Shown here one piece after another: positions 45,299-53,038 of a stretch of 64,000 nt of DNA (the stretch's first letter is position 1; each line of letters opens with the position of its first letter). A model generated the notes under the pieces. The model ran no database searches and had not been told where the DNA came from. It worked only from the letters and a program-made list of their open reading frames with translations. Position numbers and translations under genes: made by a program. Origin of the DNA: Verrucomicrobiota bacterium (GTDB taxonomy: Bacteria > Verrucomicrobiota > Verrucomicrobiia > Limisphaerales > JACDHS01); contig JACDHS010000008.1 of the NCBI GenBank assembly GCA_013820875.1, positions 277-64,276 on the forward strand, given 5' to 3'.

Positions 45299-45805
45299 TT
45301 AAGGATCGGATGAACAGCTGACACGTCGATGTTGATTACTTCTAACCGAACGGTTTCGAGCAGTTCGGGCAAAGGCTTTGAACATTTTATGAACAGTGTT
45401 TGCCTCGTCCTTTAGATCGTGCTCCCAGATACGAACGACTGTCCAACCCGCTTTACGAAGCGCTCGGCTCACGGCGCGATCTCGCTCCATATTTCTTTCC
45501 AGTTTTGCCGACCAAAAAGCTGATCGTGTCAATGGGATATGTCCATGCCGTCGACAGCCGTGCCAAAAGCAACCATCCAAGAATAACGCTAGACGCTCAC
45601 GTTTCCAGACGAAGTCTGGGCGTAGGTGCCCATGTTGAACCGGTGGATTCGGTCCACGCAATGTCAATCGGATATGCCGACGCCATCCTCGCATCTTATT
45701 GGCGCGAAGGATCGATAACATGCGTTGCTCGGTACTCAGGTTGCCTTGCGAACGAATGGAAGCCATCAATTGTGAGCGCTTCGAGGTCGTGAAGATGTCT
45801 GCCAT
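45299..45805 (-). CDS. vsr: Very-short-patch repair endonuclease
   Basis: MADIF...RSQLMASIRS...TE, RPDFV, FLDGCFWHGC, WSAKLERNMERD, WEHD. Confidence 0.93.
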   Translation of the reverse strand: MADIFTTSKRSQLMASIRSQGNLSTEQRMLSILRANKMRGWRRHIRLTLRGPNPPVQHGHLRPDFVWKRERLALFLDGCFWHGCRRHGHIPLTRSAFWSAKLERNMERDRAVSRALRKAGWTVVRIWEHDLKDEANTVHKMFKAFARTARNRSVRSNQHRRVSCSSDP

Positions 45806-45823
45806 TGTGTTCTGGATTGTAAA

Positions 45824-46963
45824 CTAACAAACCAAAGCGAATTCTATAAAATCGGCATCCCTTTGCTTCCATGCCTCTTCGTGTTTCTCAAAGAATGCGC
45901 GTTGCTCTGCAGAACATTTTAAGCCTCGATTCAACAGTTTGAAAATTTTATTAATGTAATAACGAAATGCAGGCTCAATTGTAGCTTCATCATAACCGTG
46001 GGTATAGATGCCGAGTTTCGGACAGGCAAACAGCCAGGCGTTATCTCCACGATGTTTTATGAAATCTCCCCCTTGCTGTAATGGGCCAAAATCTTTCAAA
46101 AGAAATTGATCCAGTTCAGTGGTGTACTGTTTTGGGGTGTTGCCGGCTTTCTCCACAACGCGAATTTCTTTTTCATCGATCATTTCTGCAGTGAGGAGAT
46201 CGCCTTCGTCGAGTATCGGTCCCTGAAATAGTAAACCGACCGACGCTGCCTCGTTAAGGCGATTGAATACAAATAAAAGCCGAGGCACGTCATCTAGATT
46301 GTCTGTTTCAAGTAACTTTTCGAAAAAGTCTTTTTGAACGTCGCTAAGAGTAGATTGAAATGCTGGCATCGAGACGGCGGTGAAGTGGGTATTCTCGATT
46401 TCTTCAGAGCTGGATTTACGTGATCGAGGCACCAGCAAGGCGAACGTTGTAAAATTGTTTGGGTTCGCAGTTTTCTTTTCCAGAATTGAATACATTCCAT
46501 CATCTTGAATTTGGTCGGGGGCGATCAAGGCAGCATCTTGCATCGGATCTTCGATGAAGGTTTTCAAAGCTGCGACGGTTGATTCGCACGGTTTTAGGGC
46601 AGCTTTGAATTGCTTAAGAAAATGCGAGCACTGTTGTTTTGCTACTTTTACACAACAAATCCGTTTGATCTTACTAGGATCCGACCTGCGCGTTATGAAC
46701 CAGAATTGGATGCATCCCGGCCAAATGTCAACCAATCGACATCTTCGTTCCAGAAGGTGTTCCCAAACATTAGTATCCCGGATCTCACCTTTATGAGAAT
46801 TCCACACGGGGGTAGCCAAAGGTTTGCAATCTTCGACTAGTAGGTCGCCAATTCTTGCAAATGCTGTATATGAATCAATATCCGCGTCTGGGAAGCGTTT
46901 GATTACTGCAAGACCAGTCTGGGATGTCCGTCCTTCATATGACAGGATAGAGGGGATGTTCAT
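45824..46963 (-). CDS. Uncharacterised AT-rich protein in the methyltransferase operon
   Basis: 379-aa ORF whose ATG overlaps the upstream TGA (ATGA at 46960-46963); no family recognised. Confidence 0.8.
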   Translation of the reverse strand: MNIPSILSYEGRTSQTGLAVIKRFPDADIDSYTAFARIGDLLVEDCKPLATPVWNSHKGEIRDTNVWEHLLERRCRLVDIWPGCIQFWFITRRSDPSKIKRICCVKVAKQQCSHFLKQFKAALKPCESTVAALKTFIEDPMQDAALIAPDQIQDDGMYSILEKKTANPNNFTTFALLVPRSRKSSSEEIENTHFTAVSMPAFQSTLSDVQKDFFEKLLETDNLDDVPRLLFVFNRLNEAASVGLLFQGPILDEGDLLTAEMIDEKEIRVVEKAGNTPKQYTTELDQFLLKDFGPLQQGGDFIKHRGDNAWLFACPKLGIYTHGYDEATIEPAFRYYINKIFKLLNRGLKCSAEQRAFFEKHEEAWKQRDADFIEFALVC

Positions 46964-48102
46964 TTCTTCGCCCCTTTTTTTATGCATTTTGAACATACCT
47001 CAGCGATCTGCTCTAGCAGTTCTGAAACTTTTGATGTTATCTCTTCGGCTGGAAGCCCCTTGATCCAAGCTAAAAATAGTCGTGCTTTGTCCTCTGCTGC
47101 GCGCAACGCCCTTTTCTCATTCATCATTGCTACCACCTGCTCCAACTTTGTTCCTTTCGATTCCTTGAGTAAGCTCCACGCTTCTGAATCCCGTCTTGCG
47201 CGAATCATTGGTTCAACCTGTTTCAGGTTTTGAAACCCATCTTGTTGCGCCATCAAGTGAAAAAACATTCTTTTGGTATCAGGCAACTCGGTCGCGTTTA
47301 ACTGAGACCGCCCTTTCATTGCTTTGTTTCGGAATTCCCAGAAGTAGACGAATTGTTCTTCTACGACTTGGCGGTGTTTATAGTGTGCATCCTCCGTTTT
47401 CGATGATGAAACAAACTCGTTGGCGATTTGGAGTGTCTCAAGCCATTGGTTAGCTATCGATTCGGACATCGCAAATACTTCAGCGATTTCAGCGAGTGCC
47501 TTTTCATGTGTTAGCTTTGACTTAAGGCAAGCAGTGTAATAGTCCTCGACAACCTTGGCCTTGGCCCCAAACGGCCAAGGTATTTTAAGGTCTGGAACAA
47601 AATTTGCCTCTGCGAGAATTTTGAGCCGTTGTTTCTCATTCAAGTCCGTTGTTTTAATCACCCAAACTGGTATGCGATCTAATACTTGGGGCTGTTGCTG
47701 CTTTTTTCGTTCGAATCGCCGTCTCAGCAAATGGCTGGCAAAAAAGCGACGGTTTCCATCCAGTAGCGTTGCATCATCTAATATGATCATTGGAACCCGC
47801 ACTCCATTCCTTTCTATTGAGCGGGAAAGGCTGTCGAGTTCGTGAATTGGGAGGCTGGTGACAAAATCCACCACCCTTTCAAAAGGTATCTCGGCAAGCT
47901 TCTTTTTTTCTATGCGCTCGAGGCGATCAAACGTGAATTTGGTTCGATCGTTTTCTGGCCAGTAGGTGATTTTCGACAAAGGCAGTTCGGTAGGATATAC
48001 AGTTATCCATTCATCGTGGAACAGCTCTGTTTTCGGCTTCAGCCCCTTTGTAGATACGATAGCAGAATCGATCTTTTTCGTTAGGGTTTTGAGTTTTGAC
48101 AT
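46960..48102 (-). CDS. ParB N-terminal-domain protein with HTH-like segment
   Basis: LSRSIERNGVRVPMII...LLDGNRR; later LAEIAEVFAMSESIANQWL helix-turn-helix pattern. Confidence 0.78.
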   Translation of the reverse strand: MSKLKTLTKKIDSAIVSTKGLKPKTELFHDEWITVYPTELPLSKITYWPENDRTKFTFDRLERIEKKKLAEIPFERVVDFVTSLPIHELDSLSRSIERNGVRVPMIILDDATLLDGNRRFFASHLLRRRFERKKQQQPQVLDRIPVWVIKTTDLNEKQRLKILAEANFVPDLKIPWPFGAKAKVVEDYYTACLKSKLTHEKALAEIAEVFAMSESIANQWLETLQIANEFVSSSKTEDAHYKHRQVVEEQFVYFWEFRNKAMKGRSQLNATELPDTKRMFFHLMAQQDGFQNLKQVEPMIRARRDSEAWSLLKESKGTKLEQVVAMMNEKRALRAAEDKARLFLAWIKGLPAEEITSKVSELLEQIAEVCSKCIKKGAKK

Positions 48103-48150
48103 GTATTTAAATCCAGTTTTCCTAGCCTAACTTCCCGCGCATCAAAAAAA

Positions 48151-49479
48151 TCAGCACACAGGACGTATTTTCAACGCGGCAAATCCCTTGCGTAGGCCAC
48201 CAGCTTTTCCCAACCAAGCACAGTCCGCTTCCCTGCCAGTATTCTCGCGCATGAAATAGGGATTCAAAGTCGTGCGTGGCCGATTTCTTAATTTTTCCAA
48301 AATCTCACGATTTGCACACAGAACTTCACCGCAATAGCGAATTTTATTCCTGCTGCTTATCATTCTTCGAATTGCCGCCCCGATTGCACTACCTAGCCCT
48401 ACTGGCGTGGCGTTGCCGATTTGTCGATATTGCTCGCCAATTGCGCCTGCAAAACGCCATTCATCGGGAAAACCTTGGATCCGAGCGCACTCTTGGACGC
48501 TTAACGGTCTGTCTTCAGCAGGGTGACACAGCATAGTTGCGCGACTTCTAGGGTTGTTGATGATTGTCGGTGCAGGCTCATTCCATGCTAATCGTCGTAA
48601 GAAGCCACATCGCCCTCCCCAAGAATGATAAGCACCACCGATTGCTTGGGCTTGAAGCTCAGTCGGCAGGGCTCGCCAATTTGCTCCAGCAGGAATGCGT
48701 CGCAAATATTCGAGATTTACTTCATTGAAAGGCTGATAAACAGGTTCATTTTCATTCAAATCGGCAACTGCAGTCTGAAAGTCCACCCATGGGTGCAGGC
48801 CATCGCTGCCATTCTCAGCATGAGTGGCCACTGGCCAGATGCTTGAACCGTCGCGTGCCCCTATAATAACGAAACGTTCTCGTTTTTGCGGAACTCCGAA
48901 ATCGGCCGCGTTTAATGTGCCCCAAGTAGCGCAGTAGCCTGTTTTTTCACAGAAAGCTTTTAAATCCTCAAGGATACGCCGGAAAGCAGAACCATATTCC
49001 TCGGACGGCTTTAGAGGCGGAAAACCTGGGCCACGTTCTGCTAAAGGTCGATGCTTCAGTGCTGCAGATAAGAGCCCCTTCACGTTTTCAATAACGAAAT
49101 AGCGTGGTTGAAGCAATGCGACTGCATTGAACATAATGTCGAACCCTGAGGCTCTTTCGTCCTTCAAAGAAAGTCTCTTGCCAGCAGTGCTAAACGGTTG
49201 GCACGGTGGAGCACCGGCCAAAATACCTATGCTTCCGACCTTAAGGCGTGCCTGTTTTATGATTTTTGCGCACGCATATTCAACGTTGTTTTCCGTCAGT
49301 GGTTCGGAGAAAACAACCAAGGGGCGTCCTTTCTTTGCGTGCTGGTTCAATTCAATTGTTTCTAGGGCGGCCTTATTGCAATCGGCAACGGCGCGAAGAG
49401 AAAATCCGGCAGCTTCCAAACCGAGATCTAACCCTAGCGCACCAGAAAAAAAAGATACAATTGTTTGCGGCTTTGACAT
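48151..49479 (-). CDS. DNA (cytosine-5)-methyltransferase
   Basis: FFSGALGLDLG, PPCQPFS, ENVKGL, QKRER, RIQGFP, QIGNATP motifs. Confidence 0.96.
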   Translation of the reverse strand: MSKPQTIVSFFSGALGLDLGLEAAGFSLRAVADCNKAALETIELNQHAKKGRPLVVFSEPLTENNVEYACAKIIKQARLKVGSIGILAGAPPCQPFSTAGKRLSLKDERASGFDIMFNAVALLQPRYFVIENVKGLLSAALKHRPLAERGPGFPPLKPSEEYGSAFRRILEDLKAFCEKTGYCATWGTLNAADFGVPQKRERFVIIGARDGSSIWPVATHAENGSDGLHPWVDFQTAVADLNENEPVYQPFNEVNLEYLRRIPAGANWRALPTELQAQAIGGAYHSWGGRCGFLRRLAWNEPAPTIINNPRSRATMLCHPAEDRPLSVQECARIQGFPDEWRFAGAIGEQYRQIGNATPVGLGSAIGAAIRRMISSRNKIRYCGEVLCANREILEKLRNRPRTTLNPYFMRENTGREADCAWLGKAGGLRKGFAALKIRPVC

Positions 49480-50496: not shown

Positions 50497-50888
50497 ATTT
50501 CTCGGGGAAAAAGGTCTGATTCACGACCGGATGGCCATTTTTTTCGGCGGAAAAGTTCAGATCAATAGGTGTTCATGGCTTTTTCCGCCGAAAAAAATCA
50601 AGTGCATAAGGTGATAACGACTTTTTTCGGCCGAAAAAACGAAATCAACAGGTGTTCATGACTTTATCCGGCGGAAAAAACCATTGTCATAAGGTGTTCA
50701 TGACCTTTTTCGCCGGAAAAAACCGATGTCATAAGGTGATAACGACTTTTTTCGCCGAAAAAAACCAAATCAATAGGTGTTCATGACTTTTTCCCGCGAA
50801 AAAAACCGATGTCATAAGGTGTTCATGACTTATTTCGCCGAAAAAACCCGAATCAACAGGTGTAGGTGACTTTTTTTGCGGGAAAAAA
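50497..50888. repeat. 41/42-bp-period array of 8 units with T/A-tract palindromes
   Basis: AGGTG at 50567, 50609, 50650, 50692, 50734, 50775, 50817, 50858; unit approximates AGGTGTTCATGACTTTTTTCGCCGAAAAAAACCGATGTCATA. Confidence 0.93.
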
Positions 50889-51058
50889 TGGCAGTCTGGT
50901 GCTGTTTCCGGTTGTAACGGCCTTTAAGGCAGAGGTTTACGAACCGTCTGGAGGTTTTTCGCTGTTTTCGGTGGAATAGAAAGGCGGCTTCTGATCTGGT
51001 CTTTGCTTTGTTCCGGAGGAGTCCATTCTTCCGGGGTATTTCGCCAATGAAGATTGAT

Positions 51059-51149
51059 CCTAAAACCGCAGTTGAACCGCTAATCTTCGCTGATAGTCGC
51101 TAATGGAGAAGTGAATGTGCGAAACAATGACTTCAACCAACAGGTGGTT
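51059..51149 (+). repeat. ~90-bp dispersed element, copy 2
   Basis: CCTAAAACCGCAGTTGAACCGCTAATCTTCGCTGATAGTCGCTAATGGAGAAGTG...GCGAAACAATGACTTCAACCAACAGGTGGTT; see 23761. Confidence 0.85.
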
Positions 51150-51312
51150 CAAAGATCCAAACGAAGGCAAAAGTCAGGGAGGAGAGTTAGAGTTGTAGAG
51201 TCGCAGCCCGCACGCCGGACCTTCAATAATCCGACAACGTCAACAATTCCAACTGAACTGGTTGACTTGGGGAAACGATGAAAATTGTTCCGGTGGACTG
51301 TTCGGGGAGGTC

Positions 51313-51652
51313 GAAAAACGCGTATTTCTCGTGATTTCCCTTCGGGCGGACAGGTGAATTACGTAATTGACGTGTTTTCATGAAGGGAAATTCCGTGAAT
51401 TACGTAATTCACGACTCCGCCCGACGGGCGAGGTGGTGAATTCTGTAATTCACGTGTCCGCCCGACGGGCGGAGAGGCCAAATACGTAATTCACGTGCTC
51501 GCACGACGGGCGGAGACGTCAATTACGTAATTCTCGTCCTCGCCCGACGGGAGAAGTGGTGAAATACGTATTTGTCGTGTTTTCCTGAAGGGAAACTCCG
51601 TGAATTACGTAATTCACGACTCCGCCCGATGGGAAATCACGAGAAAAACGTG
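51313..51652. repeat. 41-bp-period array built on the palindrome GTGAATTACGTAATTCAC
   Basis: TACGTA core or variant at 51319, 51360, 51401, 51442, 51483, 51524, 51565, 51606; linkers are a second hairpin (CGCCCGACGGGCG or TTTCCTGAAGGGAAA). Confidence 0.95.
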
Positions 51653-51835
51653 TTGTCTGCTGTTGTAAGTCGCTGCGAGGGAAGGGGATATTTGCTTTTA
51701 ACCACGCATGGAAAGGATTAACCGAGCGCGGCGTAGCTGCAAAAGCGCTTTTACAACGGAAGAGGGGGATTGGCATTGGTTTATTCCGTTCGCATCTGCG
51801 AAATTGGACCGGGTTTTAGAGCCAGCCGAGAGGCG

Positions 51836-53038
51836 TTAGATTATGATTAACTCGTCTGTTCTATCGTGGAATTTCGTTAGCACTTCTGCGCCAGTTTTTG
51901 TCACCAGCACCATGTCGCAATGGCGAGCGCCGCCAAATCCTTCCTCGTAAAAGCCGGGTTCGACATTGAAGACCATGCCTTCCTCCAAAACGTCCGTTGA
52001 TTTCGGATGCAGCATTGGCGGTGCGCTGTGATTGATCGCAGCGAAGCCAACCCCATGGCCAGTGGGATGCTTGAACTCTTTTCCAAACCCCCGCTCTTTC
52101 ATTGTCTCGCGGGCAGCGCGATCCACTTCGCTTGCCTTCACACTAGGTTTGATTTTTGCGAGGGCGGCATCGCGCGCTTCGAGCAGCGCGTCCAAAATGT
52201 TCTGCTTTCGATCATCCGCTTTGCCGAGAATATAGGTTCGCGTGATGTCAGTCCAAAAACCATCGGCGTAGGAGTTACAGTGGATCAAAACGAAATCGCC
52301 GTCCGCTAACCGGCGGGAACGCGACCATTGATAAGCGGCGGAGGCATCGGCGGCGTTTGGACCTGACATGCAATAGACAAATCCATCGGCCCGCAGAATG
52401 TTTTCATTCTCGGGAACGCTGAGCGGCGTGCGAAAGAAATTTGCCAACTCCGTTTCCTTGAGGTCGGGACGTATGTTCTTTTTGCCGACGACATAGGCTT
52501 GTTCTGCAATTGCGCAGGCGCTACGAAGGCGCGTGATTTCGCCGGGCGTAAGGGTAGTTCGGAGCGTGCTAATCAGAGCATCCGCTGAAACCAACTTTGC
52601 ACCATAAGATGCCTGCTCCACCATTTCTTTGATGATGGGTGCGAAGGAGTGCATGGAGGCATAGCTGCAAGGCTGGTATTGATCTTCGCTTTCGAAGCCG
52701 ATCTTTCCGTTGCTGAAAAGGTTCAGGCTGGTCGCGATTTCCACGAGAGGTGCTCGGGCCGACTCTGCTTTCTTTTTAATTTCCTCCAGTGACCCACCGG
52801 AGAACGTACGGACCTCGTCAGCCCAACTCTGTTTCGCGAGCACCTTTTCATCTTCGGGCACGATCAAAATAATTTTCCCATCGCGGGTGGCGAGCGCGAT
52901 TGAACTGCCTATGACCGGCCAATATCCTGAAAGCAGCAGGACGTTCGATGGAAAGCAGCAAGCCACTGCATCCAGTTGCGCTCTCTCCAATGCTTGTTGG
53001 ATCCGTGTTACGCGTTCATTGTCGCGGTGGATTGTCAT
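51836..53038 (-). CDS. M24 (Xaa-Pro) peptidase family protein
   Basis: DITRT, HPTGHGVG and VFNVEPGFY pita-bread motifs plus a creatinase-like N-domain. Confidence 0.9.
   Translation of the reverse strand: MTIHRDNERVTRIQQALERAQLDAVACCFPSNVLLLSGYWPVIGSSIALATRDGKIILIVPEDEKVLAKQSWADEVRTFSGGSLEEIKKKAESARAPLVEIATSLNLFSNGKIGFESEDQYQPCSYASMHSFAPIIKEMVEQASYGAKLVSADALISTLRTTLTPGEITRLRSACAIAEQAYVVGKKNIRPDLKETELANFFRTPLSVPENENILRADGFVYCMSGPNAADASAAYQWSRSRRLADGDFVLIHCNSYADGFWTDITRTYILGKADDRKQNILDALLEARDAALAKIKPSVKASEVDRAARETMKERGFGKEFKHPTGHGVGFAAINHSAPPMLHPKSTDVLEEGMVFNVEPGFYEEGFGGARHCDMVLVTKTGAEVLTKFHDRTDELIII

Follow-up and report, generated by a model that had tools for sequence, protein, structure and literature searches.

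A fully self-complementary 41-bp tandem array as the probable core of a BOX-like interspersed repeat in a Verrucomicrobiota genome

Array 4, the run of phased palindromes at 51313–51658 of the window (the whole 64-kb stretch of DNA analysed), is probably the core of a non-coding interspersed repeat organised as leader–(unit)n–tail, a selfish element of the BOX, BrickBuilt or MITE kind in which hairpin potential is maintained; we place the probability of this reading at about 0.6. The element measures ~0.45 kb, is present in five copies and contains no open reading frame with a Pfam match. As expected of a MITE, it is short, non-coding and multi-copy, and one of its copies (on contig C113) has an array-less counterpart in a genome of the same genus (G001). 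The leader–(unit)n–tail composition is shared by all five copies, and the same pattern recurs in other array families of this genome.

Array 4 comprises nine palindrome positions at a pitch of exactly 41 bp, and TRF assigns it a period of 41 with 6.9 copies, which bears out the strict 41-bp recurrence described in the initial annotation. Allowing up to three mismatches, the primary consensus GTGAATTACGTAATTCAC matches the 64-kb window six times, all within 51354–51617, against a chance expectation of 0.02; the copy at 51559, with four mismatches, makes the seventh. The two 20-bp palindromes that had been called perfect, at 51394 and 51599, are indeed so (51394–51413 and 51599–51618), and the start of the array stands as first given, but its end lies slightly beyond the original 51652, at 51658. 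Alternating with the primary palindromes are secondary hairpins, the centres of which fall exactly 20.5 bp from each primary centre. These had been described as being of two types, and a GC type (CCGCCCGACGGGCGG, four units) and an AT type (TTTCCTGAAGGGAAA, two units) do alternate with the palindromes; the two end units, however, are chimeric. The spacer types follow a mirror order, C B A A – A A B C′. This order was considered as proof of an inverted duplication and dropped, since the B-type hairpin has asymmetric loops in direct orientation; nor is the mirror order general, as other array families have higher-order direct repeats instead. Feature coordinates are collected in Table 1.

Table 1. 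Coordinates of array 4, of its neighbours and of mobile elements elsewhere in the genome (unprefixed positions refer to the window)
Feature	Position	Strand	Remarks
Leader	51238..51312	+	~75 bp left flank ending ...TTCCGGTGGACTGTTCGGGGAGGTC, common to the five element copies
Degenerate left terminal palindrome GAAAAACGCGTATTTCTC	51313..51330	.	In register, 41 bp ahead of the first full palindrome
Seven primary 18-bp palindromes, consensus GTGAATTACGTAATTCAC	51354..51617	.	Starts 51354, 51395, 51436, 51477, 51518, 51559, 51600
Secondary hairpins alternating with the primary palindromes	Centres 51342, 51383, 51424, 51465, 51506, 51547, 51588, 51629	.	
Degenerate right terminal palindrome GAGAAAAACGTGTTGTCT	51641..51658	.	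In register; sister copies keep GTGAAAAACGTTGTTT
Tail GCTGTTGTAAGTCGCTGCGAGGGAAGGGG ... TTTTAACCACGCATGG	51659..51715	+	Right flank common to the copies
Whole-array dyad	51317..51654	.	Two 155-nt arms, 77% complementary, centre 51485.5 (inverted-repeat search)
M24 peptidase gene	51836–53038	minus	One side of the array 4 gap
C5 cytosine methylase	48151–49479		Low-GC block
380-aa ParB-like protein, no Pfam match	46960–48102		Low-GC block
Prephenate-dehydratase-like protein and Vsr	Within 45299–49479		Low-GC block
MITE family with CCTWAAAACGGCAGTTAA	C109:90254–90794, C18:23826–24408, C227:3080–3690, C58:1470–2042, C69:16708–17375, others		
Three single-copy RAYT-like Y1 transposase genes	C145:15466–15810, C73:15444–15785, C54:65139–65483		

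Each unit of array 4 pairs an AT-rich palindrome of 18–20 bp with a GC-rich palindrome of 21–23 bp. Because the spacer palindrome is centred exactly 20.5 bp from the primary centre, the whole 41-bp unit is self-complementary: the consensus unit, CGTGAATTACGTAATTCACG followed by TCTCCGCCCGACGGGCGGAGA, matches its own reverse complement. It scores 0.88 for symmetry, the highest value among the 63 array families of the genome (shuffled units: mean 0.46, 99th percentile 0.62). A tandem repeat that reads alike on both strands necessarily contains two alternating dyads per period. The array 4 sequence is identical in an independent metagenome contig (L042, MWWI01004766.1) and is therefore no assembly artefact. 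This 1635-bp contig is itself a circular permutation of window 51115–52624 at 100% identity, joining 52624 directly to 51115, and its ends overlap by 127 bp. This pattern would be expected of a 1.5-kb circle, of a tandem duplication containing array 4 or of an artefact of the assembler, and no repeat common to both sides accounts for the 52624/51115 junction.

Searched across the genome, the palindrome has 29 matches, 28 of which fall within five arrays on five contigs (C126, which carries array 4, C15, C83, C113 and C150). Spacing within these arrays is always 41 bp, save for a single 82-bp interval in array 4 that spans the four-mismatch copy at 51559. When the five copies are aligned, those on C83 and C113 being inverted, a leader of ~60–80 bp is conserved, beyond which the sequences are unrelated, together with a tail of ~45–60 bp in which three copies carry the motif TTTTAACCACGNATGG. 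Leader and tail are asymmetric, the number of units ranges from 4 to 9, and the left terminal variant GAAAAACGCGTATTTCTC is found in five of five copies. The secondary hairpin varies among copies (CCGTGAGTCACGG, TTTGTGATCCACAAA, TTTTGGTTCCGCAAAA) yet always pairs. In an all-against-all BLAST of flanks, the array 4 leader also matches the flank of a family-23 array. The neighbours of the other four arrays encode a cation-efflux protein, sulfatases, an FAD oxidoreductase, an esterase and a large unannotated protein; among the Pfam-scanned neighbours, this last protein being left out, no DNA-binding gene is common to the five loci. For the copy on C113, the interval from the FAD-oxidoreductase gene to the large downstream gene is 908 bp with the array, versus 197 bp without it in G001. 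Filled and empty sites are too diverged at the base level to set the boundaries of the element or a target duplication, and neither boundaries nor a terminal inverted repeat or target-site duplication could be defined for the array 4 element itself from the five-copy alignment.

Dyad centres spaced every 20.5 bp mean that either strand could fold into ~16 small hairpins or into one ~170-bp fold-back. At minimum energy, each strand is predicted to form one long fold-back hairpin, with energies of −116 kcal/mol as DNA (z = −15.3) and −181 kcal/mol as RNA (z = −14.8) relative to shuffled sequences. Several G001 arrays share the architecture of array 4 and its GC hairpin with linkers (CGTCTTCGCCCCCGGGGCGGAG in G001, CGTCTCCGCCCGACGGGCGGAG here), and their primary palindromes (GTCAAAACTAGTTTTGAC, CGTAAAAACGTTTTTACG and GTGAAATATATATTTCAC) differ from that of array 4. 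Across 54 unfiltered units from both genomes, which are related copies set in the register that maximises pairing, 72.1% of cells form a pair, against 58.7 ± 1.3% after shuffling (0 of 500 shuffles reach the observed value) and 33–49% in slid controls. Cells changed on both sides number 175 (shuffled 102, slid controls 45–71), and the covariation score is 0.400 (shuffled 0.208, slid controls 0.11–0.17). Both dyads are kept through compensatory change. Symmetric change of this kind suits selection on hairpins, intrastrand templated correction and co-evolution with a binding dimer equally well. The multi-hairpin single-strand structure put forward as an option in the initial annotation is consistent with these compensatory changes and with fold z-scores of about −15, and such a structure may form.

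Analysis of the 5.70-Mb assembly by TRF yielded 225 merged arrays of at least three copies with a period of 41 (91 arrays), 42 (95) or 43 bp (39), which together occupy 56 kb, or ~1% of the genome. Among other periods of at least 15 bp, almost no arrays reach four copies; the next commonest period is 21–22 bp, and no arrays with periods of 31–32, 52–53 or 63 bp were seen in the same genome-wide search. Shared 9-mers sort the 225 arrays into 63 sequence families, within each of which the period is nearly constant (the sole exceptions are one array in family 10 and one in family 17, each off by 1 bp) and flanking homology extends over 50–300 bp. Predicted genes, called with a crude heuristic based on open reading frames and codon usage, overlap the arrays by ~10% on average, and arrays occupy divergent, convergent and co-directional gaps with no orientation bias relative to the flanking genes. 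Forty-six arrays lie at contig ends, indicating that they break short-read assembly. Hairpin potential is enriched across families, 60% of which contain at least one perfect stem of ≥5 bp (26% when shuffled) and 19% two hairpins (1% when shuffled). Significant strand symmetry is limited to 19 of the 63 families, and the three largest families are not symmetric; the period rather than the palindromes is the universal feature of the class. A full-text search of the literature found no description of these arrays, which is not proof of absence.

Turning to mobility, family 0 arrays reside inside MITEs bounded by an 18-bp terminal inverted repeat, CCTWAAAACGGCAGTTAA, with 5-bp target-site duplications (GTAAA, GTTAA, TCCAC and ATAAA). 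This 18-bp repeat also delimits arrays of family 7 and elements of 163–302 bp that contain no array; the motif has ~180 genomic copies, and the elements contain family 0 (42 bp), family 7 (41 bp) or no array. Only 9 of 156 testable arrays carry this motif on both sides. Pairs of terminal repeats 1.7–3.5 kb apart, considered as candidates for an autonomous partner of the family-0 MITE, hold ordinary genes and no transposases, and no transposase was found linked to any array family. Together with the presence/absence difference at the C113 site, the terminal repeats and target-site duplications of family 0 support copying of the array 4 element. The genome additionally has seven matches to Y1_Tnp (PF01797), three of them strong and corresponding to the RAYT-like genes in Table 1, which are flanked by classical GC-rich REP hairpins (e.g., CCCAGGCCAGCGGCCTGGG and AACCCCGTTGGGGTT) with 30–100 genomic copies. 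Searches with these RAYT-flanking REPs (22 to 165 genomic matches per search) gave no match inside any 41–43-bp array.

Same-family relatives of the organism retain the class without its sequences. The array 4 palindrome is absent from 40 relatives, including G001. A 656-kb sample of G001 nonetheless contains 30 arrays of 41–43 bp, approximately one per 22 kb and at a density like that of the array 4 genome, all with unit sequences that differ from those found here. Two more genomes of the same family, sampled like all those outside the genus at 18–100 kb each, also carry 41–43-bp arrays, and eleven genomes from other families of the order (18–40 kb per genome) show none in ~380 kb sampled, where ~16 would be expected at this density. 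On the DNA sampled, the class is confined to one bacterial family. A scan of JGI contigs with GTGAAWTACGTAWTTCAC for the array family in other metagenomes returned 32 loci; the sole array among them was this same locus at 100% identity.

Array positions are mostly not conserved between the congeners. When flanks of G001 arrays were projected onto the present assembly, 11 of 41 fell within 1.5 kb of an array or a contig end, against ~5 expected, and in the two G001 cases with both flanks on one contig the site is occupied here by an array of a different family. Together these results hint at preferred or functional positions: shared sites with unrelated arrays could be insertion hot spots or could reflect a positional function. 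The sites with unrelated arrays in both congeners are L078:7544 and L089:13207 in G001 and C162:12441 and C227:3173 here (G000). One orthologous two-array site differs in period, 43 versus 42 bp.

Array 4 lies inside a 2.3-kb non-coding gap flanked on one side by the M24 peptidase gene, which has no orthologue in four genomes of the same family, and on the other by a low-GC block (45299–49479, GC 0.45–0.48) containing no recognisable restriction endonuclease. Arrays 3 and 4 lie at the margin of this block, a low-GC island that resembles a restriction-modification locus. Array 3 (window 50497–50888) shares the gap and is an unrelated 42-bp array of ~8–9 units (AGGTGTTCATGAC-TTTTTTCGCCGAAAAAA-...) with a higher-order period of 125 bp and inverted-repeat ends (GACCGGATGGCCATTTTTTTCGGCGG ... 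CGGGAAAAAATGGCAGTCTGGTG); its sister copies are at C1:13938, C198:32783 and C233:9750. Between the two arrays is a ~100-bp interspersed repeat (window 51054–51151), ~90% identical copies of which adjoin arrays of other families on other contigs, as seen by flank BLAST.

The initial annotation had proposed array 4 as possible loading sites for a ParB-HTH protein encoded in this island. A profile built from the 380-aa protein and seven homologues gives a weak match to the N-domains of ParB, Spo0J and sulfiredoxin (E-value 0.013 over ~40 residues around an invariant LLDGNRR box), whereas no ParBc or HTH match was obtained in Pfam, even at E = 10; the ParB part of that description therefore has a weak N-domain signal in its favour, and the HTH part is not detectable. 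Array 4 does present the clustered palindromic sites of a ParABS system, as nine phased palindromes. No parS-like sequence was found there, no cognate ParB with both N-domain and HTH lies beside the sites and co-occurs with them, and the locus encodes no ParA-type ATPase, the neighbours being the C5 methylase, the prephenate-dehydratase-like protein and Vsr. Homologues of the ParB-like protein, at 41–49% identity, occur at seven loci in six phyla, including Verrucomicrobiota, Lentisphaerota, Bifidobacteriaceae, Altiarchaeota (an archaeon) and other lineages. Searched over up to 8 kb, none of the seven loci shows a 41–43-bp array or a palindrome related to that of array 4, so that the check on co-occurrence proposed in the initial annotation returns 0 of 7. 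In the 5.70-Mb assembly, the genes for the methylase, ParB-like, PDT-like and Vsr proteins are single-copy, against five copies of the palindrome array. As the operon is single-copy, the arrays number five and the homologue loci are array-less, array and operon do not co-occur, either inside this genome or across genomes. Judged from sequence, the proposal is not supported and we reject it: array 4 does not appear to be a loading site of the neighbouring ParB-like protein.

Other standard assignments were likewise rejected. A CRISPR is contradicted by 'spacers' that are a few recurring hairpin types, by the 41-bp period and by the lack of cas genes among the neighbours; a plasmid or phage iteron or centromere, by the absence of any match when 72,556 plasmids and 50,697 phages were searched with blastn; a known RNA, by a best Rfam match of 27.9 bits against a threshold of 88; and a coding repeat, by periods of 41 and 43 that are not multiples of 3 and by the absence of an open reading frame with a Pfam match. 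A search for a promoter or terminator at array 4 found nothing meaningful.

The internal module of BOX elements, boxB, is ~45 bp long. In Streptococcus pneumoniae these elements are organised as boxA-(boxB)n-boxC (PMC3049150), and the array 4 element resembles them in its conserved end modules, variable tandem internal units, multiple intergenic copies, high degree of base pairing and MITE-like character. It differs in having no sequence relationship to BOX, in a unit that is fully self-complementary and in lacking definable terminal inverted repeats or target duplications, and the genome differs in having ~63 unrelated families at 41–43 bp. BrickBuilt of Porphyromonas gingivalis is a MITE in which a tandem minisatellite lies between a leader and a tail, found in ~19 copies that are always intergenic (PMC4596501). 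The array 4 element shares this species-specific leader, tandem minisatellite and tail, but BrickBuilt is a single family with a 23-nt unit, whereas the arrays here have units of 41–43 bp, fall into many families and make up ~1% of the genome. We propose that the array 4 element behaves as selfish, copyable DNA. Whole elements would be copied to new intergenic sites by transposition in trans, the number of units would shift through slipped-strand pairing or unequal recombination, and the palindromes may persist because hairpin formation is selected, because intrastrand templated correction restores them, or for both reasons.

Purely selfish behaviour leaves the narrow 41–43-bp period across unrelated sequences and several genomes without an explanation. 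Array 4 could be a phased platform on double-stranded DNA, with a dimeric HTH protein acting in trans and binding each 18-bp palindrome on one helix face, so that a cooperative, centromere-like nucleoprotein complex would assemble on the five arrays. An exact pitch of 41 bp places the units about four helical turns and the dyads about two turns apart, which would suit such a protein, as would an operator-sized palindrome with a central CG and the occurrence of different-family arrays at some orthologous sites. The geometry strikingly resembles that of sopC of the F plasmid, where SopB binds a 16-bp inverted repeat in each of 12 direct repeats of 43 bp (PMC3177203): in both cases direct repeats of nearly the same length each contain one operator-sized palindrome. 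sopC, however, is a single plasmid locus beside sopAB, whereas array 4 occurs five times on the chromosome without a ParA/ParB pair beside it, its spacer is filled by a second palindrome and it does not co-occur with the ParB-like gene. Against a platform stand the lack of a DNA-binding gene common to the five loci and the presence of at least three secondary palindrome types in one array together with replacement of the primary palindrome in the congener; each of these palindromes would need its own binder, and 63 families would require dozens of cognate proteins. We consider such a platform unlikely. The special case raised in the initial annotation, with the neighbouring ParB-like protein as the binder, meets further objections in the missing co-occurrence, ParA and parS-like sequence and in the weak N-domain signal.

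Alternatively, array 4 could consist of tandem two-hairpin single-stranded-DNA elements of the PATE or REP/BIME kind, produced and mobilised by an HUH/Y1 transposase whose geometry, rather than the sequence, would set the unit length. The array 4 element resembles REP, BIME and REPIN sequences in being intergenic, in its clustered hairpin-forming palindromes, in its restriction to a clade and in its fast turnover (PMC3733652, PMC3116915). Hairpins are enriched among families (60% versus 26% of shuffled units), the genome has the Y1_Tnp matches described above, three of them strong, and structure-based recognition could explain how unrelated sequences share a period. The GTAG or CGTC tetranucleotide at the stem-loop foot that defines REP superfamilies (PMC3733652) is, however, not conserved in the array 4 unit, a strict tandem period is no feature of REPs, and the strong RAYT-like genes are flanked by their own, separate REP population, none of which lies inside a 41–43-bp array; we therefore reject RAYT/REP membership for array 4. 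Family 0 furthermore bears the marks of DDE-type movement, namely terminal repeats and 5-bp duplications, and the three largest families lack reverse-complement symmetry, leaving an HUH/Y1 origin improbable. It is more doubtful still that array 4 acts as RNA, that is, as a long or multi-hairpin non-coding transcript serving, for example, as an RNase III substrate, a protein sponge or a 3′ stabiliser. The very stable predicted RNA fold and the covariation of paired positions would suit this function, and BOX and BrickBuilt elements, which are transcribed and affect neighbouring genes (PMC3049150, PMC4596501), provide a precedent. The array nevertheless has no promoter-like site and no match to an Rfam family, neither the five copies nor the larger families are biased in orientation relative to flanking genes, and chimeric stems with G-U and C-A pairs occur on both strands.

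Least probable among these readings is that host selection acts on the DNA structure itself, with phased palindromes or A/T tracts that, as far as sequence can suggest, may form a cruciform or bend in phase and so buffer supercoiling, mark a domain boundary or insulate the island. Confinement of the period to roughly four helical turns, both in the relatives and across all 63 families, agrees with this, as do 21–22 bp as the next commonest period and the location of arrays 3 and 4 at the edge of the low-GC island. Helical phasing alone, however, predicts the 31–32, 52–53 and 63-bp arrays that are not seen, and array positions turn over quickly between the congeners. Neutral inheritance of an ancestral unit length should have produced wider drift, given that the sequences have fully diverged. 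Since that drift is not seen and the other phased periods are missing, an undescribed clade-specific 'ruler' encoded by the host or by the elements, either a DNA-binding scaffold or an array-building or copying enzyme, may operate in this family of soil Verrucomicrobia, a live possibility that we entertain tentatively and at long odds: it would make or select four-turn arrays whatever their sequence. Under a ruler, the maintained thing would be the period and not the sequence, and each genome would carry over 200 arrays that exchange their sequences between congeners at constant pitch, size and density.

Taken alone, array 4 is a negative result, in that the tempting parS–ParB pairing appears to be a coincidence of neighbourhood. 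Arrays of this class mimic operator, centromere and iteron arrays, and annotators should not take them for local regulatory sites. The class itself is unusual for bacteria, with ~1% of the genome minisatellite-like and ~60 unrelated families sharing one period of 41–43 bp; relatives keep the density of arrays but neither their unit sequences nor most of their positions. What makes the class interesting is the four-turn period, invariant across unrelated sequences and covered by none of the explanations considered here. If a ruler exists, it would represent a new principle of repeat formation or of nucleoid organisation, and array 4, with its fully self-complementary unit, would be the cleanest substrate with which to find the factor responsible.
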